Source: Candidatus Pacearchaeota archaeon
Lineage (GTDB): Archaea > Nanobdellota > Nanobdellia > Pacearchaeales > GW2011-AR1
Assembly (NCBI GenBank): GCA_050303855.1
Contig: JBNLCO010000010.1
Location: 124,093-188,092 of the forward strand
Direction: 5' to 3'
Length of the DNA stretch: 64,000 bases
Shown here: in pieces, positions 3,172 through 54,676 of the stretch
Layout of the letters: each line of letters opens with the position of its first letter
How positions within the stretch are numbered: the stretch's first letter is position 1
Notes under the pieces: generated by a model
Databases searched by the model: none
The model's input: the letters and a program-made list of their open reading frames with translations, nothing else
What the model was told of the DNA's origin: nothing
Translations under genes and position numbers: made by a program

Positions 3172-4128
3172 ATGCCAACAAGAAAATCACCAAGAAAAGG
3201 AAGCTTGCAATTTTGGCCTCGAAAGAGGATCAACAAATTTTTGCCTAGAGTTAACTGGAGTGCTATTAATTCTGATAAGAAATTGAAGGGATTTGTTGGA
3301 TATAAGGCAGGGATGGTTTCTGTTGAAGTTAAGGATTTAACTGCCAATTCAATGACTAAAGATAAGAAGATAATTATTCCGGCTACAGTTATTGAATGTC
3401 CTAAGATGAAAATCTTTTCGGTTAGATTCTACAAAAATGGGGTCGTTAAGAAGGATGTTTTAGCTGAACAATTCGACAAGGAACTTAAGAAAAAGGTTAA
3501 GGTTCCAAAAGAGAATAAATTGAAGCTTGATTCTGTAAAAAGTGAGAATTATGATGATGTTTCTGTTATTGCTTATACTGTTGTTAAGAAAACAGGATTG
3601 AAGAAGAAACCAGATATGGCTGAAATTGGTATTTCAGGTTCAAGTGTTGATGAGAAATTAAGTTTTGTTAAAGAGAATTTGAATAAAGAGTTGAGTGTTA
3701 CGGATTTATTCGCTTCAGGAGATTTAGTTGACTTTAGAGGTTTAACTAAAGGTAAAGGTCTTGTTGGTCCTGTAAAGAGATTTGGAATTACATTAAAAGC
3801 TCATAAGTCGGAGAAAGGTGTTAGAAGACCAGGTAATGTTGGTCCGTGGCATCCTGCAAGAGTTACTTTTAGAATCCCTATGGCAGGTCAATTAGGGAAG
3901 TTTACAAGAGTACATTATAATCAAAAAGTTATTGTAACTGGAAATGATGAAGAAGTTAAGAAATCTTTGAAAGCGATAAAGAACTATGGAAATGTTAACA
4001 TGGATTATGTTATTGTTTCTGGTTCAGTTCAAGGTCCAGCAAAGAGACAAGTGTTTATTACTGCTCCTTTGAGAAAAAGTAAAATGTCTGCAAAGAAGAA
4101 TTATGAATTCGGGAGAATATTGAGATAA
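3172..4128 (+). CDS. rpl3: 50S ribosomal protein uL3
   Basis: N-terminus MPTRKSPRKGSLQFWPRKR and the ...GKGLVGPVKRFG...GPWHPARV motifs; first gene of the S10-like cluster. Confidence 0.95.
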   Translation: MPTRKSPRKGSLQFWPRKRINKFLPRVNWSAINSDKKLKGFVGYKAGMVSVEVKDLTANSMTKDKKIIIPATVIECPKMKIFSVRFYKNGVVKKDVLAEQFDKELKKKVKVPKENKLKLDSVKSENYDDVSVIAYTVVKKTGLKKKPDMAEIGISGSSVDEKLSFVKENLNKELSVTDLFASGDLVDFRGLTKGKGLVGPVKRFGITLKAHKSEKGVRRPGNVGPWHPARVTFRIPMAGQLGKFTRVHYNQKVIVTGNDEEVKKSLKAIKNYGNVNMDYVIVSGSVQGPAKRQVFITAPLRKSKMSAKKNYEFGRILR

Positions 4129-4129
4129 A

Positions 4130-4375
4130 ATGGATATTGGAGAATCAATGGCGAAGAGAAAAATGATTGAAGAATTTAAGAAGTTAGAAATTGTAGCAGA
4201 AGCATTTTCTGAGGTTAAGGGGAATGTTGCTAAAGACAAAGATCTTGGGATGAGGATTGATGAAACAACAGAATTTCATTATAATATTAAAACAAATTAT
4301 GAAGAAGCAAAGGGAAAATTCGTTGGAGAAGATGGAATGCAATATGCTTTTGAAATAAGGAGATATAACGATTAA
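4130..4375 (+). CDS. ORFan A (81 aa) inserted between uL3 and uL4; acidic, no family recognised
   Basis: TAA-A-ATG junctions on both sides, identical to genuine r-protein junctions. By my count 18 D/E versus 14 K/R, so it is not r-protein-like. Confidence 0.6.
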   Translation: MDIGESMAKRKMIEEFKKLEIVAEAFSEVKGNVAKDKDLGMRIDETTEFHYNIKTNYEEAKGKFVGEDGMQYAFEIRRYND

Positions 4376-4376
4376 A

Positions 4377-5216
4377 ATGAAAACTAAAACATACGATTTA
4401 ACAGGGAAAGAAAAAGCAGAAATTGCATTACCCAAAGAATTTAGTTCTAAGGTAAGAGAAGATATTGTTTCTAAAGTTCTTGAAGCTGCAAAGAAACATC
4501 AACCTTACTCTCCAAGTCCTGTTGCAGGAAAACAACATTCTGCCAAAGGAAAGATTGTACATAGAAGACATGTTTGGAGAAGTGGTTATGGTAGAGGAGC
4601 ATCAAGAGTACCAAGAAAAATATTCTCACAGAAAGGTTCAAGATTTAATTGGGAAGCTGCAGAAGTTCCATTCGCAAGAGGCGGTATGAGAGCTCACCCT
4701 CCAAAGATAGAACACTTCTTAAAAGAACTTAAGATCAATAAGAAAGAATTAAAGATTGCTTTTGTATCTGCATTGAGTGCAACAGCTTCTGAAAAATATG
4801 TTGTTGATAAATATGCTACAGTAAATAAATTGAATAAAAAAGTGCCATTCATCTTAACTCTTGGAAATACTGAAAACTTGAAAGTTAAAGATTTACTTAA
4901 TGGTTTGAAAGGTATGCTTGGAGAAGAACTTTACAATATTGCAATAAAGAAAAAATCAATTAGGGCTGGAAAAGGAACAATGAGAGGTAGAAAATACAAA
5001 TCAAATGCAGGTATGCTTTTAGTTGTTGGAAAAGATGAAATTGGAAAAGTAAAAACTAAAATGTTTGAAGTTGTTTCGGCTGGAGAACTTGGAGTTACAG
5101 ATCTTGCCCGAGGAGGATTAGGAAGATTAACTGTTTATACTGAAAATTCTGTTAAAGAATTAGAAAATAAGTTTAATGGTAAAACTGAAAAGAAAGTGGA
5201 GGAAAAGAAAAAATGA
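4377..5216 (+). CDS. rpl4: 50S ribosomal protein uL4
   Basis: Contains ...HQPYSPSPVAGKQHSAKGKIVHRRHVWRSGYGRGASRVPRK...; position in the operon. Confidence 0.95.
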   Translation: MKTKTYDLTGKEKAEIALPKEFSSKVREDIVSKVLEAAKKHQPYSPSPVAGKQHSAKGKIVHRRHVWRSGYGRGASRVPRKIFSQKGSRFNWEAAEVPFARGGMRAHPPKIEHFLKELKINKKELKIAFVSALSATASEKYVVDKYATVNKLNKKVPFILTLGNTENLKVKDLLNGLKGMLGEELYNIAIKKKSIRAGKGTMRGRKYKSNAGMLLVVGKDEIGKVKTKMFEVVSAGELGVTDLARGGLGRLTVYTENSVKELENKFNGKTEKKVEEKKK

Positions 5217-5545
5217 ATAGTGTAGAAATTAAAGTTGTTGAAAATTGGGAAAAACCTGAAGTTTTCAGGACTTTAAAAGAAAAAGATTTGATAAGTGATA
5301 AAGAAGTTGTATTTGAATCCTTCAAGTTGAGAGGAGAAGGAACTTCTTTAATTCATACGCTCCAGAGAGTCAAGCCAGGAATTGTGAAGGTTAAAAAATA
5401 TTATTTTGAATCAGGTAAATTGAGCAGTAACGCAGGAGTGGATTATTGGACCAATTCACTGGATATAGGATATAATCCAGAAGCAAAATCAGATCAAATA
5501 CTTTATGATGCAGAAGATAAATTCCTAAGAGAGGCAGGATTATGA
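5213..5545 (+). CDS. ORFan B (110 aa) inserted between uL4 and uL23; no family recognised
   Basis: ATGA start/stop overlaps at both ends (5213-5216 and 5542-5545). GGAGG lies 10 nt upstream of its ATG (5198-5202). Confidence 0.6.
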   Translation: MNSVEIKVVENWEKPEVFRTLKEKDLISDKEVVFESFKLRGEGTSLIHTLQRVKPGIVKVKKYYFESGKLSSNAGVDYWTNSLDIGYNPEAKSDQILYDAEDKFLREAGL

Positions 5546-5778
5546 GACCAATAGCAACTGAAAAAGCAGTAATGAAAATTGAAGCAGAGAATGTAATGAC
5601 CTTTGAATTTGATAAAAGAATGAATAAAGAGGACATTAAGAAAGAAATTGAAGAGCTTTTAGATGTTAAAGTTGATTCGGTTAAAACGCAAATAAGAAAG
5701 AACAAGAAAATTGTTTACGCTAAATTAAATAAGAAGAACCTTGCAATTGATCTTGCAACTAAATTAGGAATGATGTAA
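5542..5778 (+). CDS. rpl23: 50S ribosomal protein uL23
   Basis: 78 aa, MRPIATEKAVMKIEAENVMTFEFDKRMNK...; operon position. Confidence 0.9.
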   Translation: MRPIATEKAVMKIEAENVMTFEFDKRMNKEDIKKEIEELLDVKVDSVKTQIRKNKKIVYAKLNKKNLAIDLATKLGMM

Positions 5779-5779
5779 A

Positions 5780-6478
5780 ATGGGAAAGAGAATAATACAA
5801 CAGGCACGGGGAAAGGGAAGTTCAACTTATAGAGTTAAGAGAAAAGCTTTCAGTCACAAAATCCAATATCCAAGAGGATTAACTGGAGAAGGAAGAATTG
5901 TAAAGTTATTCTTAACTGGTGGACATAGTGCTCCGCTTGCAAAGATAAACTGGTCTGGAGAGAGTTTTTATGTTCCTGCATTCAAAGGAATGGTTCAAGG
6001 AGAGAAGATTAATTTTGATTCAAAAGAAATTGTTAAAGGAAGTATCCTTGAGTTAGGAGATATTCCACTTAAGACAAAGATATTTTGCATTGAATCGAGA
6101 CCTGGAGATGGTGGAAAGTTCATAAAGACTGCAGGAAGTTCTGCAGAAGTTGTTAGAAGGGTCGGCAAAAATGTTCATGTATTAATGCCGTCGAAAAAAG
6201 AAAAACCTTTTAACCCGAAATGTCGGGCTATTATTGGTGAAGCTGCTGGTCATGGTAGAACAGACAAACCAATAATGAAAGCTGGAAAGCAACATCATAT
6301 TAAGAAAGCAAAAAGTAAATTATGGCCAAGAACAGGTGCATTGAAAGTTAATGCTATCGATCATCCTTTCGGTTCAGGTAGAGGAAAGAACCCTAAGAGC
6401 AAGATTGCAAAGAGAAATTCAGCTCCTGGTCAAAAGGTTGGTTTATTGAGACCAAGAAGGACAGGTAAGAGAAAGTAA
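5780..6478 (+). CDS. rpl2: 50S ribosomal protein uL2
   Basis: Contains MGKRIIQQARGKGSSTYR...AIDHPFGSGRGKN... Confidence 0.95.
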   Translation: MGKRIIQQARGKGSSTYRVKRKAFSHKIQYPRGLTGEGRIVKLFLTGGHSAPLAKINWSGESFYVPAFKGMVQGEKINFDSKEIVKGSILELGDIPLKTKIFCIESRPGDGGKFIKTAGSSAEVVRRVGKNVHVLMPSKKEKPFNPKCRAIIGEAAGHGRTDKPIMKAGKQHHIKKAKSKLWPRTGALKVNAIDHPFGSGRGKNPKSKIAKRNSAPGQKVGLLRPRRTGKRK

Positions 6479-6479
6479 A

Positions 6480-6848
6480 ATGGAAATGAAATTACAAACA
6501 ACTGGAATAAAGTATGAAAATCTAGTTGGAAAAGGATTAGAACTTTTTTGTGAAAGTGCGGTCAATAAAGATGAAAATGTTGTGGGAAGGTATCTTCCTG
6601 GAATTGAGGGACAAGAGATAACCTATTTAGGAAATTTAGGACATAGATTCGGAGAAAGAGATTTATTTGGATTTGAAGAAGACAATAAATTGACTGTCCT
6701 TGTTGGAAACATAAAAGACATTACTGGAAACAGGGCAACGTTAAGCACCTTTGTTCAAAGCATTTCCCCAAATTTTTACGGAACTGAAAATTTGAGTGAT
6801 GAGATTTTAAAACAATGCAAAGAGATTTTGTCAGGAGTAAAAGAATAA
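6480..6848 (+). CDS. ORFan C (122 aa) inserted between uL2 and uS19; no family recognised
   Basis: TAA-A-ATG junctions on both sides. Gly/Glu-rich, not basic. Confidence 0.6.
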   Translation: MEMKLQTTGIKYENLVGKGLELFCESAVNKDENVVGRYLPGIEGQEITYLGNLGHRFGERDLFGFEEDNKLTVLVGNIKDITGNRATLSTFVQSISPNFYGTENLSDEILKQCKEILSGVKE

Positions 6849-6849
6849 A

Positions 6850-7254
6850 ATGGTAGATATAGGATCACAAAAGAAACAATTCAAGTATCGAGGCAAAGAT
6901 ATTGAAGAGTTGAAGGCTTTAGATACTCGAGAGGTTGCAAAATACCTTGATTCGAGAGCTAGAAGAACTGTACTTAGAAACTTCCAAGAAATTGAGGATT
7001 TCCTTCAGAGAGCTAAGAGAAAACAATCAAAGAATAAGAAGATTAAAACTCATAAGAGAAAATTGATAGTTGTTCCTCAAATGGTTGGAATGCAAATCCA
7101 AGTACATAACGGAAGAATGTTTATTCCAATTGAGGTTGTCCCGGAGATGATCGGACATTATTTGGGAGAATTTTCATTAACAAGGGCAAAAGCTTCACAT
7201 AGTAAATCAGGAGTTGGTGCTACTAAGGGTAGTAGAGCCAAATCCAAGAAGTAA
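6850..7254 (+). CDS. rps19: 30S ribosomal protein uS19
   Basis: Contains ...IVVPQMVGMQIQVHNGRMFIPIEVVPEMIGHYLGEFSLTR... Confidence 0.95.
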   Translation: MVDIGSQKKQFKYRGKDIEELKALDTREVAKYLDSRARRTVLRNFQEIEDFLQRAKRKQSKNKKIKTHKRKLIVVPQMVGMQIQVHNGRMFIPIEVVPEMIGHYLGEFSLTRAKASHSKSGVGATKGSRAKSKK

Positions 7255-7259
7255 GTAAA

Positions 7260-7871
7260 ATGACAGAAAAACAATACGCTCCAAGTGCTAAAGAAAAGAA
7301 GATGTCTACAAAGAAAGTAGAATCCCCAGTAGCAGAAGCTCCTAAAAAGGTTGAAGCTAAAGAAAATAAAACTGAAGAGAAAAAAGTTGAAGAAAAGAAA
7401 ACAGAAGTAAAGCAACCTGTTAAAGTTACAAAAGTTAAGAAAGATCTTGCTGTAGTTAATGCAAACAATTCAAAAGTTTCATTAAAATATGCAATAAGCA
7501 TTTGTAAATTCATTAAAGGCAAAAGAATTGGCGATGCGATAAGAGATTTAGAAGCAGTTGTTGTTAAGAAAAAGGCAGTTCCAATGACTGGAGAGTATGC
7601 GCATAAGAAAAGTGTAAAGAAATATGCATCAGGTGCTGGAAAATACCCTGTTAATGCTGCAAAGGCTTTCCTTGTGTTGGTTAAAAGCCTTTTAGGAAAT
7701 GCTAATGCAAATGACATAAATGAACCTGTAATCACTGAATGTATTGCAAACAAAGCCCCCAAACCAATGGGAAGATTTGGAAGATGGGAAAGAAAAAGAT
7801 GCCACATCAAATTGGTTGCAAGAGAAATTAAAGTTAAAGAGAATAAAGCTAAGACAGAGGAAAAGAAATAA
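7260..7871 (+). CDS. rpl22: 50S ribosomal protein uL22 with an N-terminal Lys/Glu-rich extension of about 60 aa
   Basis: The core ...VSLKYAISICKFIKGKRIGDAIRDLEAVV... is preceded by MTEKQYAPSAKEKKMSTKKVESPVAEAPKKVEAKENKTEEKKVEEKKTEVKQ. Confidence 0.9.
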   Translation: MTEKQYAPSAKEKKMSTKKVESPVAEAPKKVEAKENKTEEKKVEEKKTEVKQPVKVTKVKKDLAVVNANNSKVSLKYAISICKFIKGKRIGDAIRDLEAVVVKKKAVPMTGEYAHKKSVKKYASGAGKYPVNAAKAFLVLVKSLLGNANANDINEPVITECIANKAPKPMGRFGRWERKRCHIKLVAREIKVKENKAKTEEKK

Positions 7872-7872
7872 A

Positions 7873-8565
7873 ATGGAAGAAAAACAAACTGTAAAATTCA
7901 AGAAGGAAGACTTTGCTATAAAGGAAATCATAAGAAAGACAATTGGAAAGGGAAAGATGAGCAGAGTTAGAATTGAATATACTCCGGTTGGAGAAAAAGT
8001 AATAATCTCCACAGATAAACCAGGTTTGGTTATTGGAAGGGGTGGAGAGAGTTTGAACGAATTAAGTGATATGCTTAGAAAGAATTTCAAATTCCAAAAT
8101 TTACATATTGAAATTGAAGAAATAAAAGAACCTGAATTTGACTCTCAAACTATTGCAGATGAGATTGCTTTAGGTTTAGAGAGAGCTGGACCATTAAAGT
8201 TCAAGGTTATTGCTTACAGAACACTTGAGAAAGTGATGAAAGCGGGAGCATTAGGTTGTGAAATAAGATTAAGCGGAAAACTTCCAAGTTCAAGAGCTAA
8301 GACATGGAGATTCGCTCAAGGATATTTAAAGAAAACAGGAGACTCTGCAAAGGTTGTAAGTCGTGCTCAAGCAAGAGCTGAGACTAAGCCGGGAACTGTG
8401 GGAGTTAAGGTTAGTATATTATCACCGCATGCAATATTGAAAGATAGAATAAAGATCAACGAAGATTTGATAAACCAGTTGAAAGAAAACGCTGAAAAAT
8501 TAAATGAAGTTCCAGAGAAGAAAACTAAGAAAAAAGCTAAGACTGCTAAGGAGAGTAAAAAATGA
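7873..8565 (+). CDS. rps3: 30S ribosomal protein uS3
   Basis: The track ORF starts at 7744, inside uL22. The in-frame ATG at 7873 (TAA-A-ATG junction) gives MEEKQTVKFKKEDFAIKEIIRK... with the KH-domain motif LVIGRGGESL. Confidence 0.9.
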   Translation: MEEKQTVKFKKEDFAIKEIIRKTIGKGKMSRVRIEYTPVGEKVIISTDKPGLVIGRGGESLNELSDMLRKNFKFQNLHIEIEEIKEPEFDSQTIADEIALGLERAGPLKFKVIAYRTLEKVMKAGALGCEIRLSGKLPSSRAKTWRFAQGYLKKTGDSAKVVSRAQARAETKPGTVGVKVSILSPHAILKDRIKINEDLINQLKENAEKLNEVPEKKTKKKAKTAKESKK

Positions 8566-8756
8566 AACACTCAGAAGTAAAGAAATTAAGTAAGACAGAC
8601 AGAGATAAGAAATTAAAAGAACTAAAGTTGGAATTAGTTAAAGAAAACGTATCAAAGCAAGGCGGAAATAAATCTGCTAAAATAAGAAAAATAATCGCAA
8701 GAATACACACACTCAACAACATGGAAAATAAACCCAAGGAGTTGAATAACAAATAA
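8562..8756 (+). CDS. rpl29: 50S ribosomal protein uL29
   Basis: 64 aa, MKHSEVKKLSKTDRDKKLKELKLELVK...; ATGA overlap with uS3. Confidence 0.9.
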   Translation: MKHSEVKKLSKTDRDKKLKELKLELVKENVSKQGGNKSAKIRKIIARIHTLNNMENKPKELNNK

Positions 8757-8760
8757 AACA

Positions 8761-9060
8761 ATGGAAATAGATCCAAAAACAGGATTGCCAGTTCAGGCAA
8801 TGGAGTGGGAAGACCTTGCAAAGGGTTCCCAAAAAATACGGGTAACGACCGATAAAAAAAGATACGGAAAGATCGTTACTCTAGTGAGTGGTTTCGACAA
8901 AGGAATCGACATAAAGAAAACCGCAAAGGCATTGAAGAATGAACTTGCGTGTGGCGGGACCTTTAAGGACGATGCAGTTGAACTGCAAGGAGACCACACA
9001 AAGAAAGTAAAGCAAGTCCTTGTAAAAATGGGATTTGACGAAAGCTCCATAGAAGACTGA
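8761..9060 (+). CDS. translation initiation factor SUI1 (aSUI1/eIF1 family)
   Basis: 99 aa, ...IRVTTDKKRYGKIVTLVSGFD...LKNELACGGTFKDDAVELQGDH... is the typical SUI1 core. Confidence 0.9.
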   Translation: MEIDPKTGLPVQAMEWEDLAKGSQKIRVTTDKKRYGKIVTLVSGFDKGIDIKKTAKALKNELACGGTFKDDAVELQGDHTKKVKQVLVKMGFDESSIED

Positions 9061-9078
9061 AGAGGTGAAAAATAAAAA

Positions 9079-9423
9079 ATGGAAAGTAAGAAAATGAAAA
9101 AAACAGAAGTAAAAGAATCAAAAATAGTTGGAACTGAAAAGAGTATAAACCCAAGAGGAAAGATCTTCGAGGGAGTTGTAACAGCAAAGTTCCACAAGAG
9201 AATAACAATCGAATTCGAAAGAATGGTTTATATTAGAAAGTATGAAAGATATGCAAAGTCGAAGACAAAAATCCATGCAAGACTCCCAGTTTCAATGGAA
9301 AACGAAGTTAATGTTGGAGATTTGATAAGAGTTCAAGAGTGTAGACCTTTAAGTAAGATAATCCATTTCATCGTGGTTAAGAAATTAAAAGATGCTTCAG
9401 AAATTTTAGGAGGAAAGAAATAA
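9079..9423 (+). CDS. rps17: 30S ribosomal protein uS17
   Basis: Contains ...RGKIFEGVVTAKFHKRITIEFERMVYIRKYERYAKSKTKIHA...VGDLIRVQECRPLSK... Confidence 0.92.
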   Translation: MESKKMKKTEVKESKIVGTEKSINPRGKIFEGVVTAKFHKRITIEFERMVYIRKYERYAKSKTKIHARLPVSMENEVNVGDLIRVQECRPLSKIIHFIVVKKLKDASEILGGKK

Positions 9424-9424
9424 G

Positions 9425-9826
9425 ATGAAAGCAATAAGTTCAAGAGCTACAGAAGGATTGAATTTGGGGGCAATAATGGTTGCTGCAGACAATAGTGGGG
9501 CTAAAGTTGTAAAATTAGTTTCGGTTAAGAAAGCTAAAGCTAAGAAGGGAAAACAAGTTGCTGGAAAGATTGCTGACTGGGTTAAAGTATCCGTAAGAAA
9601 AGGTGTTCCAGATATGAAAGGAAAAGTGTTTGATGCAGTAATAGTTAGACAGAAAAAACCATGGAGAAGGAATACGGGGGAGAGAGTTGCATTTGAAGAT
9701 AACGCTGTTGCAATCTTGAAAGACGATAAAGGTAATCCGAAAGGAACTCAAATTAAAGGACCAATTGCAAGGGAGGTTCAGGAGCGATGGCAATCTGTTG
9801 CTAAAATAGCTCAAACTGTTTATTAA
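9425..9826 (+). CDS. rpl14: 50S ribosomal protein uL14
   Basis: Contains ...MVAADNSGAKVVKLVSV...DAVIVRQKKPWRR... Confidence 0.95.
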   Translation: MKAISSRATEGLNLGAIMVAADNSGAKVVKLVSVKKAKAKKGKQVAGKIADWVKVSVRKGVPDMKGKVFDAVIVRQKKPWRRNTGERVAFEDNAVAILKDDKGNPKGTQIKGPIAREVQERWQSVAKIAQTVY

Positions 9827-9827
9827 A

Positions 9828-10325
9828 ATGAAGAACAAATTTTCAACAAAATGGAAGGCAAGTAAGAGACCTTCAAAGCAGAGAAAGTATTTAGCAAATG
9901 CTCCTTTACATATAAAGGCAAAACTAGTTAGCGTAAATCTTGCAAAACCTCTTAGAAAGACTTCAGAAAAGAGAAATGTTCCAGTAAGAAAGGATGACAA
10001 GGTAAAGATTATGAGAGGTAAATTCAAAGGGAAAGAAGGAAAGGTTTTGAGTGTAAGTACAAAATATTCAAAAGTAATTGTCGAAGGAATAACAATCAAG
10101 AAAATGGATGGTTCACAAGCAAATGTTCCATTAAAACCTTCAAACTTACAGATAATTGAGATGACAGATAGAAAACAAAAAGCAGTTTCTGAGAAGAAGA
10201 CTGAAGTAAAAAAAAGAGTCTCTGAAACAAAGTCTCAGGACTCATCCGCTGTAGCGACGTCGAACGAAACACCTAAAAAGGAAGTTAAAGAAGTAAAAGA
10301 TAAAGGTAAGGAGAATAAAAAATGA
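9828..10325 (+). CDS. rpl24: 50S ribosomal protein uL24 with a C-terminal K/E/S-rich tail
   Basis: KOW motif VRKDDKVKIMRGKFKGKEGKVLSV. The tail is ...EKKTEVKKRVSETKSQDSSAVATSNETPKKEVKEVKDKGKENKK. Confidence 0.92.
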   Translation: MKNKFSTKWKASKRPSKQRKYLANAPLHIKAKLVSVNLAKPLRKTSEKRNVPVRKDDKVKIMRGKFKGKEGKVLSVSTKYSKVIVEGITIKKMDGSQANVPLKPSNLQIIEMTDRKQKAVSEKKTEVKKRVSETKSQDSSAVATSNETPKKEVKEVKDKGKENKK

Positions 10326-10972
10326 AACATCTAAAGAGAGAAGTAGTACCAAAGAGTTGGCCAGTTCCAAGGAAAGGAACAACTTTTGTAGTTAGATCTA
10401 ACTCAAATCCTGAAAAGGGTGTTCCAATGTTGATATTCCTTAGAGATATGGTAAAGGTTTCTCAAAATAGAAAAGAAGTGAAGAGAGCTTTAGTTAACAA
10501 GAATATTCTAATTAATGGAAAATACGTTTCAGATGAGAAAAACGCAGTTGTATTACTTGATGTTGTTACAATTGTTCCATCAAAGAAATATTTCGTTCTT
10601 GATTTAACAGAAAACGGAAAGTTCGTTGCTAGAGAAATATCTGAGAAAGAGTCAATGAATAAAGTTTCAAAGATTACCGGAAAGAAATCTCTAAGAGGGA
10701 AGAAAACTCAAATTAATTTGATAGACGGAAGAAATTTCATCTCAAATGTAAAATGTGTAGTAGGAGATTCTGTTTTGATTGATTTCAAAGGAAATAAAAT
10801 TGAGAAATGTGTTCCATTGAAAGATAAAGCGAAAGTAATTATTTTTGCAGGAAAACACGCAGGAATGAAAGGAGAAATAGAAAAGATTGACGAGGAAAGA
10901 AAGATGGCTTCAGTGTCTTCAAATGGAGAAAAAATAAATGTTCTTGTTGAACAACTAATGGTAACAGAATAA
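10322..10972 (+). CDS. rps4e: 30S ribosomal protein eS4
   Basis: MKHLKREVVPKSWPVPRKGTTFVVRS...; an archaeal/eukaryotic-specific r-protein. Confidence 0.93.
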   Translation: MKHLKREVVPKSWPVPRKGTTFVVRSNSNPEKGVPMLIFLRDMVKVSQNRKEVKRALVNKNILINGKYVSDEKNAVVLLDVVTIVPSKKYFVLDLTENGKFVAREISEKESMNKVSKITGKKSLRGKKTQINLIDGRNFISNVKCVVGDSVLIDFKGNKIEKCVPLKDKAKVIIFAGKHAGMKGEIEKIDEERKMASVSSNGEKINVLVEQLMVTE

Positions 10973-10973
10973 A

Positions 10974-11492
10974 ATGGCAGAAGAAAAAACTGAAAAAGTA
11001 AACCCTATGAATGAGGTTAAAATTGAAAAGGTAGTTTTAAGCATAGGTGGGACTGGAGATTATTTGGATAGAGGTTACAGATTGTTGAAATATCTTACAG
11101 GAAAGAATCCTATGAAGACAAAGGCTCAGAAAAGAATTCCAGCATGGGGGGTTAGACCTGGTTTGGAAGTTGGAGCAACAGTAACATTAAGGAAAGATGC
11201 TATTGATTTTTTGAAGAGAATGTTGGTTACAATAGATAATAACTTGAAAAAGAAGCAAGTAAGTGAAAATAGTCTTTCATTTGGAATAAAAGAGTATATT
11301 GAAATACCTGATGTAGAATATCAAAGGGATATCGGTATAATGGGGTTCGATGTAACAATAACATTTAAGAGATCAGGAAGAAGAGTTAAATTAAGAAAGA
11401 TAAAATCTGGAAAAGTTGGAAAAAAACAGATTATAAAGAAGGAAGAAATAGTAAAATATATGGAGGATAATTTCGGAACGGAATTTATATAA
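10974..11492 (+). CDS. rpl5: 50S ribosomal protein uL5
   Basis: Contains ...NPMNEVKIEKVVLSIGGTG...FGIKEYIEIPDVEYQRDIGIMGFDVTI... Confidence 0.93.
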   Translation: MAEEKTEKVNPMNEVKIEKVVLSIGGTGDYLDRGYRLLKYLTGKNPMKTKAQKRIPAWGVRPGLEVGATVTLRKDAIDFLKRMLVTIDNNLKKKQVSENSLSFGIKEYIEIPDVEYQRDIGIMGFDVTITFKRSGRRVKLRKIKSGKVGKKQIIKKEEIVKYMEDNFGTEFI

Positions 11493-11493
11493 A

Positions 11494-11760
11494 ATGGCAA
11501 ATAAAATAACTTTAAAGAATAGGGAGAAATTGAGGGAAGAGCTTGAGAAGTTAGTTGTACAAGTTGATGAGATAAACGACTTCATGGGGCAGTTACCTCA
11601 TAACAATCATGGGCAGGCAACTAGGAGCTTAAACCCTAAGAAAGGTGAATATTTAAGTCACTTTGATGGAAATAGCGAAGGCATAGTTGGAAAATATCGT
11701 TCAAAAAATGGAGAGGTTTATACTATTAGCGTATCAAAAGAATACGGAGGTGGAAAATAA
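11494..11760 (+). CDS. ORFan D (88 aa) inserted between uL5 and uS14; no family recognised
   Basis: TAA-A-ATG junctions on both sides. N-terminal helical K/E segment, then PHNNHGQ and a C-terminal EYGGGK. Confidence 0.6.
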   Translation: MANKITLKNREKLREELEKLVVQVDEINDFMGQLPHNNHGQATRSLNPKKGEYLSHFDGNSEGIVGKYRSKNGEVYTISVSKEYGGGK

Positions 11761-11761
11761 A

Positions 11762-11992
11762 ATGACAGCAAGCAATTACGAAAAGATGTTGAAGCAATTA
11801 AGAAGCAAACCTGCAAAGATGCAGAGATACTTGAAGCACAATAAGCCAAAAACTAGAACTACTGGTAAGGCTTTGAGAAGATGTGAACAGACGGGACAAT
11901 TCGGAGGACACATAAAAATGTACGGATTGAACTTATGTAGACAGGCATTCAGAGAAATAGCGGAGGAATTAGGATTTAAGAAATACTCTTAA
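11762..11992 (+). CDS. rps14: 30S ribosomal protein uS14, a variant lacking two of the four zinc-ribbon cysteines
   Basis: The track ORF starts at 11687, inside ORFan D. The ATG at 11762 gives MTASNYEKMLKQLRSKPAK...RRCEQTGQFGGHIKMYGLNLCRQAFREIAEELGFKKYS. Confidence 0.88.
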   Translation: MTASNYEKMLKQLRSKPAKMQRYLKHNKPKTRTTGKALRRCEQTGQFGGHIKMYGLNLCRQAFREIAEELGFKKYS

Positions 11993-12006
11993 ATTGCAAA
12001 AGTAAA

Positions 12007-12387
12007 ATGAGTCACGATGTTGTAGCAGATGGATTGAATATGTTGAGAAATGCAGCTGTAGCTGGAAAAGAAACCGTGAAGATAAATAGAATCTCAAATG
12101 TTTTGATAGAAGTTCTTAAAATAATGAAGCAAGATGGAGCAATAAAGAAATATAAAATAGATTCTGAAGATAAATCTCTTACAGTTACAATAGACAAATT
12201 AGATGAATGTAAGGCAATAAAACCAAGATTCACTTGTGATGTTTCGCAAATAGAGAACTATAGAAGAAGATATCTTCCAGCAAGAGATGTTGGAACAATG
12301 ATACTTTCTACAAACAAAGGGTTAATGACTCACAAAGAGGCAACAGAAGAAAATATTGGAGGATGCCTAATTGCATATTTCTATTAA
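12007..12387 (+). CDS. rps8: 30S ribosomal protein uS8
   Basis: MSHDVVADGLNMLRNAAVAGKETV...GGCLIAYFY. Confidence 0.93.
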   Translation: MSHDVVADGLNMLRNAAVAGKETVKINRISNVLIEVLKIMKQDGAIKKYKIDSEDKSLTVTIDKLDECKAIKPRFTCDVSQIENYRRRYLPARDVGTMILSTNKGLMTHKEATEENIGGCLIAYFY

Positions 12388-12388
12388 A

Positions 12389-12931
12389 ATGAAAAAACCT
12401 TTATCAAAAATAATTGAAATTCCTGAAGGAGTGGAAGTTGCTCTAGATGGAAGAGATGTTAAGGTAAAAGGCCCAGAAGGAGAGATAACTAAAGATTTTG
12501 ATTTTGGGACTTTAGATATTGTTATCAAAGATGGAAAGATAGAATTAAGCCATAAAAGTGCAACAAAGACTGAAAAGAGAACAATGAATACTTTTGCAGC
12601 GCATATACTAAACATGATTAAAGGTGTTCAAGAGAAATTCGAATATACGCTTAAGGTTGCTTCAAGCCACTTCCCTATGACTGTGAAGGTAGAAGGAAAC
12701 ATTGCAACAATAAAGAATTATTACGGAGAAAAAACTGATAGAAAAACAAAAATTCCGAAAGGAGTTGAGGTAGAAGTTAACAAAGATTCAATTGTTGTTA
12801 AGTCTGTTGATAAAGAACTTGCAGGTCAGGCTGCAGCAAATTTCGAGAACGCTACAAAAGTTAGAAATAGGGATAGAAGAATTTTCCAAGATGGAATTTA
12901 CATAACTAAAAAACACGATAAAGCTATTTAA
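12389..12931 (+). CDS. rpl6: 50S ribosomal protein uL6
   Basis: The track start at 12371 is a TTG inside uS8. The ATG at 12389 (TAA-A-ATG) gives MKKPLSKIIEIPEGVEVALDGRDVKVKGPEGE... Confidence 0.92.
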   Translation: MKKPLSKIIEIPEGVEVALDGRDVKVKGPEGEITKDFDFGTLDIVIKDGKIELSHKSATKTEKRTMNTFAAHILNMIKGVQEKFEYTLKVASSHFPMTVKVEGNIATIKNYYGEKTDRKTKIPKGVEVEVNKDSIVVKSVDKELAGQAAANFENATKVRNRDRRIFQDGIYITKKHDKAI

Positions 12932-12936
12932 TTAAA

Positions 12937-13341
12937 ATGACCGAAAAGAAAAAACCAAATTTCAAGAGAAAGGACTCACACAAGTATTCTAAGCTTGGAA
13001 AGTCAAGAAAGAATAAACAGAAGTGGAAGAAACCTACTGGAAGAGATAACAAAATGCGTGAGAAGAAGAAGGGTCATCCAGCGGTTGTTTCAATAGGGTA
13101 TAAGACAAACACTTCAATAAGAGGAAAAGTGGAAGAAAAGAAACCAGTTTATGTTTACAACATCAAGGATTTGGAAAATGTAAACACAAATGAAATTGTA
13201 ATTGTTGGAAATGTTGGGATGAAGAAGAAAGTAGAAATTACAAAGGTTGCAAAAGAAAAGAAAATCAAAATAAAAAACATTAATGAGAAAAAATTAATGA
13301 AGAAAGTTAAGAAAAAAACAACTAAGGAGAGTAAAAAATGA
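12937..13341 (+). CDS. rpl32e: 50S ribosomal protein eL32
   Basis: Contains ...KQKWKKPTGRDNKMREKKKGHPAVVSIGYK... Confidence 0.9.
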   Translation: MTEKKKPNFKRKDSHKYSKLGKSRKNKQKWKKPTGRDNKMREKKKGHPAVVSIGYKTNTSIRGKVEEKKPVYVYNIKDLENVNTNEIVIVGNVGMKKKVEITKVAKEKKIKIKNINEKKLMKKVKKKTTKESKK

Positions 13342-13805
13342 ATTTGAGATCAAAGAAGGAGCTAGCTGCAAGAACATTCAAGGTTGGTAAAGAAAGAATT
13401 ACTTTCATTAAAGAAAGATTGGATGAAGTAAAAGAAGCTATAACTAAACAAGATATGATTGGTTTGGAGAAAGACGGAGCAATAAAGGTAAAGGAAGTAA
13501 GTGGGAGAAAGAAGGTACATACTGTAAGAAATAGAAGCCCAGGGAACGTAAGAAAGAAGGTTAACACTAGAAAAAGGGACTATGTTATCATGACTAGAAA
13601 GCTTAGACAACACGTTAGACACCTTAAATCCAATGGAGAATTAAGCCCTGAAGAAGTTAAAGAAATAAGAAAAAGAATAAGAAACAAAGGATTTAAGAGT
13701 AAAGCACATATGAAAGAACAGATAGCAACAAAGAATTATTCCTCTGTTCAAGTATCAGGAAAATCAAAAAATAAAAAAACTAAATCAAGTAAAAAGAAAA
13801 AATGA
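13338..13805 (+). CDS. rpl19e: 50S ribosomal protein eL19
   Basis: MNLRSKKELAARTFKVGKERITF...; ATGA overlaps at both ends. Confidence 0.92.
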   Translation: MNLRSKKELAARTFKVGKERITFIKERLDEVKEAITKQDMIGLEKDGAIKVKEVSGRKKVHTVRNRSPGNVRKKVNTRKRDYVIMTRKLRQHVRHLKSNGELSPEEVKEIRKRIRNKGFKSKAHMKEQIATKNYSSVQVSGKSKNKKTKSSKKKK

Positions 13806-14290
13806 AAGTACAAAAACGAAGAAGAAGAGAAAATAAGACAGACTATCTTAAGAGAATGAAGCTTCTTAAGAGCGCAAAGCCAAGAGTAGTATTCAGAAAA
13901 ACAAACAAATATGTTATTGCGCAATATGTTGTTAGTGATGAAGCTAAAGATAAAGTTGTATTTGGAGTAAGTTCAAAAGATTTGTTAAAGAAAGGTTGGG
14001 ATGAAAATGCTAAAGGATCTTTGAAGTCAATACCTGCAACATATTTAACAGGGTATTATGCTGGTAAAAAAATCTTGAAAGAAGGGCTTGAAACTCCAAT
14101 AGTGGATTTAGGTATGATAAAAACTTTACATAAAACAAAGGTTTTTGCTTTTATCAAAGGTTTAATTGATTCTGGAGTAGAAATTGGATCAAAAGAAGAA
14201 GCATTCCCTGAAGAAGAAAGAATAAATGGAGAAAGTTTAAAGAACAAGGTAGACATTCAAAAAATTAAATCAAGTTTAGATAAAGAATAA
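13802..14290 (+). CDS. rpl18: 50S ribosomal protein uL18
   Basis: MKVQKRRRRENKTDYLKRMKLLKSAKPRVVFRKTNKYVIAQYV... Confidence 0.92.
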   Translation: MKVQKRRRRENKTDYLKRMKLLKSAKPRVVFRKTNKYVIAQYVVSDEAKDKVVFGVSSKDLLKKGWDENAKGSLKSIPATYLTGYYAGKKILKEGLETPIVDLGMIKTLHKTKVFAFIKGLIDSGVEIGSKEEAFPEEERINGESLKNKVDIQKIKSSLDKE

Positions 14291-14291
14291 A

Positions 14292-15158
14292 ATGACCGAA
14301 AAAGAACTTAATAAAAAAACTGCAGAAGCATACAAAGATAATTTGAATACTGACGCGGAAGAAGCTACAGAGAAAATGATAAAGGATGAAGAAAATGATG
14401 AATATGCAGAAGTTCCTGAAGAAGTTTTAGATGAGAAAGAACTTAAGGAATTAAAAGAGATGGAAAAGGACACTAAGAAGCCTGGAAGGGACAGAAGAGA
14501 TAGCGCTCCTGCAGAAGCATGGTCTCCTATTACAAAGTTAGGGGTTGCTGTAAAAGAAGGAACAATCAAAGATATTGATGAAATTATTGAGAAAAAAATG
14601 AAGATCCTTGAACCAGAAATAGTTGATAAATTAATACCTGTTGAATCAGATTTAATTTCTATAGGGCAATCTAAAGGTAAGTTTGGTGGTGGAAAAAGGA
14701 GAGCATGGAGACAGACTCAAAGAAAAAAGAAGGAAGGAAATGTTGCTACATTCTCAGCTATGGCCGTTATTGGCGATGGTAATGGTCATGTGGGTATTGG
14801 AACAGGAAAGTCTACAGAGACTCTTCCAGCAAGAGATAAAGCTACAAGAAAAGCTAAAATTAATGTAATAAAAATTATTAGGGGGGATGGAAGTTTCGAT
14901 TCTGTTGGAGGAGGAAATACAAGTATTCCATTCAAAGTTTCAGGTCAAGCAGGAAGTGTAAGAATTACTTTAATGCCTGCTGCTCCAGGTACAGGTCTTG
15001 TTGCAGGGGATGAAATGAAGAAGATACTTAGAATTGCAGGAATAAAAGATATATACTCAAAAACAGAAGGAAAATTGTCTACAAAGTTTAACCTTGCAAA
15101 AGCAACAATAGATGCACTTAAGAAAACAAATCCTTTGTATAAGAGGGCAAAACAATAA
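14292..15158 (+). CDS. rps5: 30S ribosomal protein uS5 with an acidic N-terminal extension of about 75 aa
   Basis: Core ...AWSPITKLGVAVKEGTI...FSAMAVIGDGNGHVGIGTGKS..., preceded by MTEKELNKKTAEAYKDNLNTDAEEATEKMIKDEENDEYAEVPEEVLDEKELKELKEMEKD. Confidence 0.92.
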   Translation: MTEKELNKKTAEAYKDNLNTDAEEATEKMIKDEENDEYAEVPEEVLDEKELKELKEMEKDTKKPGRDRRDSAPAEAWSPITKLGVAVKEGTIKDIDEIIEKKMKILEPEIVDKLIPVESDLISIGQSKGKFGGGKRRAWRQTQRKKKEGNVATFSAMAVIGDGNGHVGIGTGKSTETLPARDKATRKAKINVIKIIRGDGSFDSVGGGNTSIPFKVSGQAGSVRITLMPAAPGTGLVAGDEMKKILRIAGIKDIYSKTEGKLSTKFNLAKATIDALKKTNPLYKRAKQ

Positions 15159-15159
15159 A

Positions 15160-15522
15160 ATGAAAATCGCAGTAATAAGGATAAAAGGAATGGTTGGACT
15201 AAAAACAGACATAGCTGAGACTTTGGATAGATTAAGATTGAGAAGAAAATATGCGTGTGTGGTTATAGAAGATACACCAGAGAATTTAGGAATGATAAAG
15301 AAGGTTGGAGACTTTGTTGCACATGGCCCTATTGATGAAAAAACCTACAAAGAATTAGTTGATAAGAGAGGAAAGAAAGATTCTGAAGGCAAACTTAAAC
15401 CATTCTTTAGATTGCACCCTGCTAGAGGCGGAATGGAAACTAAAAAACACTTTGGAGTGGGTAAAGGAGTTTTAGGAAATAATAAAGATAAAATAAATGA
15501 ATTAATAGGGAGGATGTTGTGA
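15160..15522 (+). CDS. rpl30: 50S ribosomal protein uL30
   Basis: The track ORF starts at 15112, inside uS5. The ATG at 15160 (TAA-A-ATG) gives MKIAVIRIKGMVGLKTDIAETLDRLRLRRKYACVVI... Confidence 0.9.
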   Translation: MKIAVIRIKGMVGLKTDIAETLDRLRLRRKYACVVIEDTPENLGMIKKVGDFVAHGPIDEKTYKELVDKRGKKDSEGKLKPFFRLHPARGGMETKKHFGVGKGVLGNNKDKINELIGRML

Positions 15523-15523
15523 A

Positions 15524-15742
15524 GTGTCCGAGTACTATAAGGGCAAAAAAATTAATGGCGAGCTTATTTGCGGAGTGAGTGATCAGGGAAACTACAATCC
15601 TATAATTACAACCGTTTCAAAGTCAGAGGACGAGAATTTAAGGAATACTTATGTTCTCAAAGAAGACATCCTTGAGTTTGTCAAGGCCGATCCGCTAACA
15701 GACAAACAAGCTAGAAATTACATAAACAAATCAAAAAGATAA
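15524..15742 (+). CDS. ORFan E (72 aa, GTG start) inserted between uL30 and uL15; no family recognised
   Basis: TGA-A-GTG junction upstream and TAA-A-ATG downstream. Sequence MSEYYKGKKINGELICGVSDQGNYNPIITTVSK... Confidence 0.5.
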   Translation: MSEYYKGKKINGELICGVSDQGNYNPIITTVSKSEDENLRNTYVLKEDILEFVKADPLTDKQARNYINKSKR

Positions 15743-15743
15743 A

Positions 15744-16235
15744 ATGGCGCAAAGAACACATAAAAGAAAAAAATCAACAAGATACCATGGAAGGAATATG
15801 GGTACTTCTAGCAATGGTTCTAGAAAAACACATAGAAGTTCAGGTAATAAAGGTGGAACGGGATTATCTGGTACTGGAAAGAGAGCAGACCATAAGAAAA
15901 CATTGATAAACAAATTATACGGAAATAATTACTTTGGGAAACAAGGAATTACCTCTAAGAAGACTCAGAGAGATAAGAGATTAAGAATAACTCTTTCTCA
16001 AATAATGAATAACCTTGAAAGCTATGGAAAAAAGACTGCAAAAGGTTGGGAAATTGATTTAAGCAAGTACAAAATACTTGGTAAAATTGAAGTTAAGGAA
16101 AAATTAATAATAAAGGCTCTTGAAGCATCAAAAGGAGCAATTGAATCGGTTAAGAAATCTGGTGGAGAGATAGTTTTGCCTGTTCCTAAAAAGAAGGTTG
16201 AAGTCAAAAGTTCCGACGATGGCAAAGAAGAATAG
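15744..16235 (+). CDS. rpl15: 50S ribosomal protein uL15
   Basis: MAQRTHKRKKSTRYHGRNMGTSSNGSRKTHRSSGNKGGTGLSGTGKRADHKK... Confidence 0.92.
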   Translation: MAQRTHKRKKSTRYHGRNMGTSSNGSRKTHRSSGNKGGTGLSGTGKRADHKKTLINKLYGNNYFGKQGITSKKTQRDKRLRITLSQIMNNLESYGKKTAKGWEIDLSKYKILGKIEVKEKLIIKALEASKGAIESVKKSGGEIVLPVPKKKVEVKSSDDGKEE

Positions 16236-50542: not shown

Positions 50543-51432
50543 CTTGAACCTCCGTGTTTTTTATGGAAGTACCACTTAAGTATTGAAACATTGGTGATCC
50601 AAGTGTTTATCATATCAAAGAATAATCCTATTACAAGGATTGTGAAAATTTGAGTTAAAATTTCTGAGAAAGATGAGGCAACAAACAGAGCTATTGCCAT
50701 AGCAAAAAATGAAGTTAAAGTCATAGTCATACCGGTCTTAAAAGCCCCAGATATTCTTTCGTTTAGAGAGCCTTCGTGACGTTTCAATACTCTGTTTGTA
50801 AGAAGGATATCCGTATCCACAGAATAACCAATAAGCATAAGCAAAGCAATTATTCCTGCGCTAGACATCTTTATTCCAAAGAGATTTATTGCAACAAGGG
50901 TTAACAGGATATCTGCAAAAGCAGAAATTATAACTGCTCCTGAAGGAATTAGATCTTTGAAAATTATGAAAACAACTATTGCCATAAATAAGAATGCTAC
51001 AAGAACTGCAATTATCAATTGCTTATAGAAACTTTCACCAAAAGAAGATCCTGTTGAAATTATGTCTGAATTCTCTCCAGATATTAATTCGTAACCCAAG
51101 AATGTCTCTAATTCGGCTTTAGCTGTGTCAACATCTGAAGTAGTTTCTATTGTGAGGGCTATTTGCTCTTGAGTTAGAAGATCAGAGATTTCTCTTACTG
51201 CGAGATTATCCAATTTTGGTTCTAGAGCTAAGGTTAATTCGGAAGCGGATATTTTATCATAAACAGTTATTGAAGTTCCCCCTGTAAGGGAGATATCTTT
51301 CTCAAAGAATGCTCCGTGGTTTGAATTATAAACTCCAAGATAAACTAGTGAAAATAGGATTAAAACTGCAGGGATAATTAGCAAATATTTGTAAGATTTA
51401 TCATGCCAGTGTTTTTTTGTTGATTCTTCCAT
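50539..51432 (-). CDS. secF: protein-export membrane protein SecF
   Basis: 297 aa, ...LLMLIGYSVDTDILLTNRVLK...; 4-nt overlap with secD. Confidence 0.8.
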   Translation of the reverse strand: MEESTKKHWHDKSYKYLLIIPAVLILFSLVYLGVYNSNHGAFFEKDISLTGGTSITVYDKISASELTLALEPKLDNLAVREISDLLTQEQIALTIETTSDVDTAKAELETFLGYELISGENSDIISTGSSFGESFYKQLIIAVLVAFLFMAIVVFIIFKDLIPSGAVIISAFADILLTLVAINLFGIKMSSAGIIALLMLIGYSVDTDILLTNRVLKRHEGSLNERISGAFKTGMTMTLTSFFAMAIALFVASSFSEILTQIFTILVIGLFFDMINTWITNVSILKWYFHKKHGGSR

Positions 51433-51443
51433 TTGAAATTCTA

Positions 51444-51531
51444 TGCGCGGACCGGGGATCGAACCCGGATCAACTGGTCTCTTCAGACAACCTGTGGAAG
51501 CCAGTTATTCTAACCATTAAACTATCCACGC
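51444..51531 (-). tRNA. tRNA-Gly(UCC) with a 16-nt intron at the canonical 37/38 position
   Basis: Manual fold. Acceptor GCGTGGA/TCCGCGC plus discriminator A73; D arm GTTT-AATGGTTA-GAAT; anticodon stem ACTGG/CCAGT; loop CTTCCA|intron CAGGTTGTCTGAAGAG|A; T arm CCGGG-TTCGATC-CCCGG. No encoded CCA. Confidence 0.85.
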
Positions 51532-51891: not shown

Positions 51892-51944
51892 ATAAATTTC
51901 AGGATTTAAACCATTATAAAAGGTTGTAACCTCTTAAGAATAAA

Positions 51945-52020: not shown

Positions 52021-52104
52021 CAATTGTTCTCAGAACAAGAAAAGGAGATTTAAATGTTATGCAAGGAACTAAATCTTTAATAATAAGGCTTTAGATGCGA
52101 AATA

Positions 52105-54663: not shown

Positions 54664-54676
54664 AACAAAAGGATAG

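Follow-up and report, generated by a model that had tools for sequence, protein, structure and literature searches.

The S10/spc-type ribosomal-protein (r-protein) operon in a 64,000-nucleotide stretch of Candidatus Pacearchaeota contig JBNLCO010000010.1 (hereafter the window) carries five extra open reading frames (ORFs), here called A to E, between its r-protein genes. On balance, we favour the view that they are real, promoterless small genes, or 'junction cassettes', which colonise the stop-start junctions of the operon, owe their expression to translational coupling and turn over rapidly. The finding goes beyond the initial annotation, in that rapidly turning-over small orphan genes occupy the junctions of this very conserved operon across a whole clade. 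Gene order in the S10/spc cluster is the textbook case of a frozen arrangement, and the cluster is a base of the marker sets used in phylogeny and binning; here, it is a hotspot of gene turnover.

Five ORFs at junctions of the S10/spc operon

The host genome is that of a low-GC (~33%) DPANN archaeon; its closest relatives in public data carry the labels Woesearchaeota, Pacearchaeota or Nanoarchaeota. The operon and its inserted ORFs are as follows (aa, amino acids; pI, isoelectric point; junctions are written as upstream gene>downstream gene):

3172–16235, + strand: S10/spc-type ribosomal-protein operon (uL3 ... uL15), host of the five inserted ORFs, from the ORF map and Pfam
4130–4375, + strand: ORF A, 81 aa, pI 5.1, uL3>uL4 junction, a complete orphan
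5213–5545, + strand: ORF B, 110 aa, pI 5.5, uL4>uL23 junction, of a very small family
6480–6848, + strand: ORF C, 122 aa, pI 4.9, uL2>uS19 junction
11494–11760, + strand: ORF D, 88 aa, pI 8.9, uL5>uS14 junction
15524–15742, + strand: ORF E, 72 aa, pI 7.8, GTG start, uL30>uL15 junction

The initial annotation had placed the five ORFs after uL3, uL4, uL2, uL5 and uL30, and the ORF list agrees with it exactly in coordinates, strand and length, while Pfam bears out the identities of the flanking genes (uL3, uL4, uL23, uL2, uS19, uL5, uS14, uL30 and uL15). The claimed junction grammar, i.e. a 1-nucleotide (nt) spacer or an ATGA overlap, also holds at all five: ORFs A, C and D have TAA-A-ATG at both their upstream and downstream junctions, ORF B has an ATGA overlap at both, and ORF E is joined to uL30 by TGA-A-GTG and to uL15 by TAA-A-ATG. 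Non-coding stretches inside the operon never exceed 31 nt, and between 3172 and 16235 they stay at or below 18 nt. The proteins were said not to be basic like r-proteins, and their pI values are indeed 4.9–8.9 vs. 9.3–11 for the r-proteins; the count of 18 Asp/Glu vs. 14 Lys/Arg in ORF A is correct. A comparison of the five proteins finds no mutual similarity, and none of them belongs to a family recognised by Pfam or NCBIfam, again as first described.

The source is a metagenome-assembled genome (MAG), which by itself invites the suspicion of an assembly or gene-calling artefact. We give this practically no credence, because the arrangement of A–D is reproduced in an independent Logan assembly of run SRR36185838 (its contig ends before slot E), and the same architecture is found in dozens of independent MAGs. 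Moreover, an open frame arises by chance at this base composition with P ~5e-4 for 80 codons and P ~1e-5 for 120 codons, which excludes chance open frames as an explanation for the five ORFs.

Junction ORFs across related archaea

We fetched 80 related loci of the Woese-/Pacearchaeota type (species-level representatives, denoted by L numbers) with uL14, and mapped all operon genes in them. The N-terminal extensions of uL22 (7260–7871) and uS5 (14292–15158) in the window, which are long (~60–75 aa), charged and unalignable with some relatives, give rise to false 'gaps' in the junction table. Nine artefactual 'junction ORFs' were removed, being pieces of uS5, uL2 or uL3, or a relocated uS3-uL29-SUI1 block. 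Such a block lies between uS5 and uL30, and not after uL22, in L079 and L080, where the operon order is rearranged.

Many of the relatives have gaps of 200–900 nt between r-protein genes, at varying junctions. Among the gaps of at least 150 nt, 184 of 206 are at least 80% covered by + strand ORFs, and at either end most of the gap-filling ORFs meet the neighbouring gene with a 1-nt spacer or a 4-nt overlap. After clean-up there are 193 junction ORFs with a median length of 102 aa, distributed over 21 different junctions. Counted in the 67 loci with at least 15 scorable junctions, 41 relatives carry 1–12 junction ORFs and 26 carry none. The cluster had been described as normally uninterrupted, which does not hold in this lineage.

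The sequences of the junction ORFs are highly diverse: blastp at E≤1e-3 sorts the 193 into 158 clusters, 140 of them singletons. Their pI is below 7 in 56%, and a transmembrane (TM)-like segment is present in only 6. About 85% of the 150 that were scanned with Pfam have no match, and the larger ones with a match are ordinary small enzymes or regulators (RNase_T-type exonuclease, GNAT, MazG, 2-thiouracil desulfurase, HD, HAD and HTH). The window ORFs are one case of a pattern across Woese-/Pacearchaeota-type DPANN archaea, in which a very large and diverse pool of small, mostly soluble, non-basic proteins occupies almost any r-protein junction. We found no published description of variable ORFs interleaved in DPANN r-protein operons, within an incomplete coverage of the literature.

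Two families of junction ORFs in the relatives stand in slots that are also occupied in the window. One, of ~200–220 aa by blastp, lies at uL4>uL23 in 14 relatives (L004, L009, L012, L015, L022, L029, L031, L038, L056, L058, L066, L072, L076 and L086); all five of its members scanned with Pfam match RNase_T/DEDD exonuclease, and it is unrelated to ORF B. The other, of ~60 aa, lies at uL30>uL15, the slot of ORF E, in L042, L052 and L057, and has a CxC...CxxC zinc-ribbon-like motif and an acidic tail.

Families and predicted folds of ORFs A–E

When the five ORFs were concatenated and run exhaustively with HMMER against 1.84 billion representative proteins, the search recovered each ORF itself and few relatives, namely: none for A, three full-length and one fragment for B, one for C, eight for D and one for E. 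Each of A–E is a singleton 90% cluster. The homologues (denoted by P numbers) of ORF B are P0011, P0016 and P0019, at 35–40% identity, and the single homologue of ORF C, P0007, is 42% identical. ORF D is 52% identical to its closest homologue P0008, which lies in the same uL5>uS14 junction in L089, while P0009, 53–56% identical to ORF E, lies in the same uL30>uL15 junction in L090–L093 and was found on 7 contigs. By tblastn (E≤1e-3), A–E are absent from all of the 80 related loci, and comparison at the protein level yields only weak partial matches for B (in L005) and D (in L079). ORF B appears as a mosaic, with an N-terminus related to the ORF in L005 and a C-terminus related to P0013 of L102.

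The D family, with eight further representatives, has invariant residues in its alignment and a confident AlphaFold model (predicted local distance difference test (pLDDT) score 89), in which a four-stranded meander packs against a long N-terminal helix. The B family model (AlphaFold2) is of moderate confidence (pLDDT 75) and consists of a beta-meander and a C-terminal helix.

Profile searches, structure prediction and fold searches had been proposed as a check, and no known family was found that explains the ORFs trivially. A–E have no match in Pfam, NCBIfam, PHROGs or PADLOC, and no member of the D and B families has a Pfam match. The D and B profiles find nothing meaningful among PDB sequences, fold searches against the PDB return no similar structure, and the best match of the D model by Foldseek to viral structures (BFVD) has an E value of 0.15. 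No match was obtained by tblastn against phage and plasmid collections, or in an IMG/VR scan made with the B family only. In the operon region, Rfam detects no RNA family.

Three possible identities were considered for these proteins. Ribosomal proteins were rejected, given no Pfam or NCBIfam match for A–E, no PDB sequence match for the D and B profiles and a distribution that is not lineage-wide. With regard to toxin-antitoxin or defence systems, PADLOC and Pfam give no match for A–E, and the cassettes are single genes, not two-gene modules. Homing endonuclease domains (HNH, GIY-YIG or LAGLIDADG) have no Pfam match in A–E and are not among the 25 families listed, out of 34 that the 150 junction ORFs of relatives match.

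Coding signal and selection

A codon model trained on 27 long genes elsewhere in the window gives A–E in-frame scores of 0.15–0.41 per codon, vs. 0.11–0.42 for genuine small genes of the operon, and both shifted frames of A–E score negative. ORF A, at 0.41, is inside the range of true small genes of the same genome. In the relatives, the codon-position composition of 211 junction ORFs is that of r-protein genes (G 0.31/0.17/0.13 at positions 1/2/3).

Purifying selection was another proposed check, and for B–E it is supported by nonsynonymous differences (pN) far below synonymous ones (pS) against the nearest homologues (pN 0.31–0.39, pS 0.57–0.86). The individual values of pN and pS are 0.34 and 0.60 for ORF B vs. 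P0011, 0.39 and 0.57 for ORF C vs. P0007, 0.32 and 0.86 for ORF D, and 0.31 and 0.86 for ORF E vs. their homologues. Nonsynonymous divergence (dN) is ~2–5 times as high in B–E as in the r-proteins next to them when the same genomes are paired, and pN is smaller than pS in nearly all alignable cassette pairs. Judged by these sequence signatures, the junction ORFs are real genes, and those with homologues are under purifying selection.

These data bear on the possibility that the ORFs are mere ORF-shaped spacers, i.e. inserts that stay open only for ribosomes to read through to the next essential gene and that encode a functionless peptide. Perfect junction grammar everywhere, the extreme turnover of sequence, the total orphan status of ORF A, the near equality of pN and pS between ORF B and the L005 ORF, and the L023 insert described below, which looks like a repeat element read in frame, are all compatible with such spacers. 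However, the codon-position bias is strong, equal to that of real genes and beyond what stop avoidance alone would give; A–E follow host codon usage; pN is far below pS for B–E vs. true homologues; and the D family has invariant residues and a confident predicted fold. We therefore regard functionless spacers as improbable.

Turnover between related genomes

The closest relative, L005 (r-proteins 85% identical), has similar-sized ORFs in four of the window's five slots, and in three of these four the ORF is not detectably related; the common part is only the first 37 residues of ORF B. DNA identity between the window and L005 falls from ~80% to ~40% exactly at gene borders. In L006 (r-proteins 80% identical), the uL3>uL4, uL2>uS19 and uL5>uS14 junctions are empty, and cassettes are present in ten junctions that are empty in the window. 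The slot of ORF A in relatives is either empty (L006) or holds an unrelated ORF (L005 and L088). Even the closest pair in the set, L058 and L068 (r-proteins 92% identical), differs at three junctions, and the two genomes have no cassette family in common at the two junctions occupied in both. A metagenome scan for closer relatives with ORF C found nothing, and one with eS4 found only two distant loci.

Some cassettes have been inherited: the E homologue in L090–L093 and the closest D homologue in L089 are each in the same junction as in the window. Others change position. ORF C lies after uL2 (uL2>uS19), and its sole homologue is in the uL23>uL2 junction of L088. D-family members are found at uL5>uS14 (window and L089) and at uL14>uL24 (L079 and L098); a further one, in L100 and L101, is flanked by two genes, one for an ABC-type ATPase and one whose protein has an N-terminal TM helix. 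In L102, a 37-aa ORF directly before uS3 is 68% identical to the C-terminus of ORF B. Among the relatives, 8 of the 18 multi-member clusters occupy more than one junction. Similarity between cassettes can also disagree with the distance between genomes: the L045 cassette is 40% identical to one in the distant L079 at another junction (r-proteins 57% identical), and 34% identical to one in the near L053 at the same junction (r-proteins 77% identical). With regard to the D-family member outside the r-protein operon (L100:2604–3100 and L101:1811–2307), we also note that it is wedged there together with an 80-aa ORF, with an ATGA overlap.

The initial annotation had taken the regular junctions to argue against recent insertion, and had offered long-domesticated selfish insertions as one of three readings. 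The first argument finds no support, as the nearest relatives have nothing, or an unrelated ORF, in these slots, and L058 and L068 have no cassette in common. Of the second, the selfish element comes nearest to the data among the three readings, and the old domestication gives way to ongoing turnover.

The alternative of old resident genes which evolve extremely fast and are lost differentially, without mobility, such that position changes reflect ancient paralogues, deserves consideration on two counts. The E and D homologues (52–53% identical) occupy the same slots between flanking r-proteins that are 77–88% identical, which fits fast vertical evolution, and the RNase_T-like family is fixed at uL4>uL23 in 14 genomes. 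Nonetheless, at the same r-protein distance L005 shows no detectable similarity in three shared slots, and identity drops in sharp cliffs at the borders. The members of the C and D families and the B fragment in other junctions, the 8 of 18 families in several slots, the incongruence of the L045/L053/L079 similarities with r-protein distance and the existence of duplication scars (see below) also speak against residence without mobility, which we consider quite unlikely.

The same distribution argues against the two remaining readings of the initial annotation, lineage-specific ribosome-associated proteins and dedicated chaperones, or escorts, of the preceding r-protein. Ribosome-associated factors or chaperones of the adjacent r-protein would be consistent with the location of the ORFs and their co-expression with r-proteins, with the acidity of A–C, complementary to basic clients, and with the fact that both known C-family members adjoin uL2. 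On the other hand, the clients are 72–90% conserved, yet near relatives lack the supposed partners, have them elsewhere or have an unrelated ORF in the slot; 26 of the 67 relatives have no junction ORF at all; and there is no resemblance to known escort folds. An escort of the preceding r-protein is opposed by the C and D families and the B fragment, which adjoin other genes in other genomes. Patchy distribution together with non-basic charge likewise opposes lineage-specific ribosomal or ribosome-associated proteins. Slot-specific chaperones, as well as ancient domesticated residents, are disfavoured because the slots differ in the nearest relatives and homologues lie in other junctions. A role in or beside the ribosome is accordingly very improbable in our view, and the products are probably neither ribosome parts nor r-protein escorts.

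Probable expression by translational coupling

The initial annotation had argued that the ORFs are co-transcribed with the r-protein genes and probably translationally coupled. Given that they share one strand, that stop-start grammar is kept and that non-coding stretches are at most 31 nt, this is the only reasonable reading: with no non-coding room for signals of their own, the five ORFs would be transcribed within the operon mRNA and translated by coupling.

At either end of the cassettes in the relatives, the prevailing offsets are +2 or -3. The consensus TAAAATGAAA, with nothing beyond it, is common to all three junction classes in 80 cassettes, and r-protein genes use the same consensus or ATGA. 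Shine-Dalgarno (SD)-like motifs, scored as a 4-mer in -20..-4 of the start, occur at the following frequencies:

cassette starts: 66%
r-protein genes preceded by a cassette: 66%
r-protein genes preceded by another r-protein gene: 54%
random 17-mers: 22%

Four of the five window cassettes (A, B, C and D) contain an SD-like motif for the next gene inside their last codons:

4358–4362, + strand: AGGAG in the last codons of ORF A, 15–19 nt upstream of the uL4 start, as read from the sequence
5529–5534, + strand: GAGAGG in the 3′ end of ORF B, upstream of the uL23 start
6833–6837, + strand: AGGAG in the 3′ end of ORF C, upstream of the uS19 start
11746–11752, + strand: GGAGGTG in the 3′ end of ORF D, in the codons of its GGGK tail, upstream of the uS14 start

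Because the cassette carries such a motif in its own last codons, translation of the downstream essential gene would be preserved. The 3′ end of ORF B (AGAGAGGnAGGATTAT) is also present in the B-like mini-ORF of L102. In the D alignment, only ORF D and its closest homologue P0008 reach beyond the conserved core, and the tails are unalignable.

We propose that an insertion is retained only when it already is, or turns into, an ORF through which translational coupling continues. The perfect junction grammar would then reflect a filter and not age, since only coupling-preserving insertions survive. As every surviving insertion obeys the same grammar, the junction cassettes offer a readout of the rules of archaeal translational coupling.

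Insertion scars and possible mechanism

Two loci carry duplications next to a cassette. In L094–L097 (four independent assemblies), identical copies of a 54-nt unit stand on either side of the B homologue P0011. The unit opens with the initial 24 nt of uL23 (ATGAAACCGATAGCAACTGAAAAA) and closes with a G-rich SD sequence, and the contigs end at it. In L023 (9310–9610), the SUI1 3′ end is duplicated as a perfect 49-nt direct repeat on the two sides of an insert that separates SUI1 from uS17. Across junctions, duplications of 12 nt or longer number 10 vs. 2 in controls. These scars are a weak hint of integration by recombination at a gene end, with regeneration of that end. In the junction-cassette reading, insertion or exchange would proceed by recombination at short sequences common to all junctions or at the flanking conserved gene ends, and may sometimes leave a duplicated gene end.

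Further details of the two loci were noted. In the L094–L097 array (e.g. L094:475–534 and L097:372–431), the 54-nt unit forms a 21-codon mini-ORF that bridges cassettes. The L023 insert contains an internal repeat, has copies at L023:20138–20392 and in L014, and resembles a small repeat element read through in frame.

A more active version of capture would be an integron-like platform, in which a trans-acting recombinase or a circular intermediate drives excision and integration at gene-end sequences. Its attractions are the co-oriented, promoterless, hyperdiverse cassettes that vary between relatives; the L094–L097 array, whose contigs break at the 54-nt unit as they would at a multi-copy or polymorphic repeat; the perfect 49-nt direct repeat of L023; and the excess of long junction duplications. 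However, no integrase or transposase family is present in the Pfam lists of called genes for ~1–20,400 and 49,200–58,100 of the window. Cassette ends have no attC-like inverted repeats, no motif beyond the ordinary junction consensus was found in 80 cassettes, most cassettes have zero or one spacer base and hence no room for a site, and there are only two clear scars among 193 cassettes. An integron-like platform is thus unlikely.

Two other origins were tried and rejected. Local duplication was discarded for A–E, as there is no DNA or protein paralogy anywhere in the window. Copying of the 5′ end of the downstream gene into cassette N-termini was seen in 8 of 174 cases vs. ~4 expected, which is not significant, and the perfect 5′-end matches are artefacts of relocated or mis-bounded genes.

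Several points weigh against the junction-cassette reading and keep it no firmer than probable. Expression of the five ORFs is predicted from sequence. ORF A has no homologue among the 1.84 billion proteins, and the support for its function comes from codon usage only, not from selection on its protein. The dN/dS ratio is 0.85–0.99 in three cassette pairs, including that of window ORF B and the L005 ORF, and dS is saturated in most comparisons, which makes omega an upper-bound-like value only. Movement between junctions may partly reflect old paralogy. The relatives are species-level only, which puts individual gains and losses, and their rates, out of reach. At the boundaries of window cassettes A–E there are no scars, repeats, inverted repeats or recombination sites. 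Enrichment of the r-protein operon over other operons was checked crudely and in this window only, and the D-family member in the non-ribosomal operon of L100 and L101 means that the phenomenon is not exclusive to the r-protein operon. Finally, no lead to the function of A–E came from Pfam, NCBIfam, PHROGs, PADLOC, PDB sequence and fold, phage or plasmid searches.

Comparison with known systems

Integron gene cassettes are the closest in general appearance, being small, promoterless, co-oriented ORFs of mostly unknown function behind an upstream promoter, with a repertoire that varies among close relatives; the L094–L097 array with its identical inter-cassette unit adds to the likeness. In contrast to integrons, no attI or attC was found here, nor IntI in the two scanned intervals of the window, and the junction cassettes are dispersed singly between essential genes with 0–1 spacer bases, not stacked at one site.

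T4-type and lambdoid phages carry ORFans in hyperplastic regions and 'morons', for which shuffling by recombination between short common sequences has been proposed. Like the junction cassettes, these are short orphans wedged between conserved genes with stop/start overlap, and vary among relatives. Here, however, the setting is a core translation operon of a cellular chromosome with no room for a promoter or terminator of the insert's own, and the cassettes show no similarity to entries in phage collections, PHROGs or BFVD (nor, for the B family, in IMG/VR).

Bacterial hotspots flanked by core genes usually lie between operons and span kilobases with mobility genes. They resemble the present case in having accessory genes with fast turnover between conserved core genes that are able to act as homology arms, and differ from it in that here single ORFs of ~0.3 kb lie inside one operon at gene-to-gene junctions.

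The archaeal S10/spc cluster has non-ribosomal residents, namely: SUI1/aIF1, RNase P Rpp29, SecY, Adk and Cmk, which are ancient, conserved, fixed in position and of known families. A–E are likewise non-r-protein genes co-transcribed in the cluster, but are neither ancient, conserved, fixed in position nor of a known family. In the window operon, SUI1 is at 8761–9060.

The eukaryotic escorts Rrb1, Acl4 and Syo1, to which the initial annotation had drawn an analogy, are large repeat proteins (WD40, TPR and ARM/HEAT) conserved with their clients. The likeness is limited to acidic or neutral proteins made together with basic r-proteins. A–E are 72–122 aa long, are not conserved with a client and lie next to different r-proteins; they have no repeat-fold Pfam match, and the D and B models consist of a helix and a small beta-meander.

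Possible roles and implications

In the junction-cassette reading, the products would be dispensable accessory proteins that make use of the strong constitutive expression of the operon. A role in symbiont-host or virus conflict is a matter of speculation, by analogy. A wider proposal, which we hold tentatively and with more doubt than belief, is that r-protein operon junctions, and perhaps those of operons generally, serve a large DPANN clade as a capture-and-display platform without a classical integron. Exchange would take place at near-identical junction or gene-end sequences, coupling would be needed for survival, and the cassettes together would make up a hypervariable accessory proteome with a plausible use in conflicts between symbiont and host or with viruses.

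A whole archaeal clade tolerates and renews orphan genes at almost every S10/spc junction, which makes it a natural system in which to study the entry of new genes into essential operons. The junction cassettes also constitute a concentrated, presumably highly expressed set of uncharacterised small proteins in poorly understood episymbiotic archaea with small genomes. In practice, where annotation relies on operon synteny, or binning on contiguous blocks of r-protein genes, variable inserts and assembly breaks are to be expected, of which the short L094–L097 contigs ending at the repeated unit are an example.

Other features of the window

Outside the S10/spc operon, a crude gene map of the window shows no small ORF wedged between same-strand genes. 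The second r-protein cluster (54707–58059: eL21, an Rpb4-like gene, DUF655, uS13, uS4, uS11 and RpoD) is uninterrupted; 43 nt upstream of eL21 lies a 67-aa ORF without Pfam match (54460–54663, + strand). Between 51444 and 53379, Rfam identifies a 5S rRNA (53264–53379, + strand) and three tRNAs (51444–51531, 51946–52021 and 52892–52975, all on the - strand). Directly upstream of uL3 is a 235-aa ORF (2242–2949, + strand) that has no Pfam or NCBIfam match. For about half of the 80 relatives, tblastn places a match to it, at 33–73% identity, upstream of the operon; it is a conserved unknown that contrasts with the variable junction ORFs.

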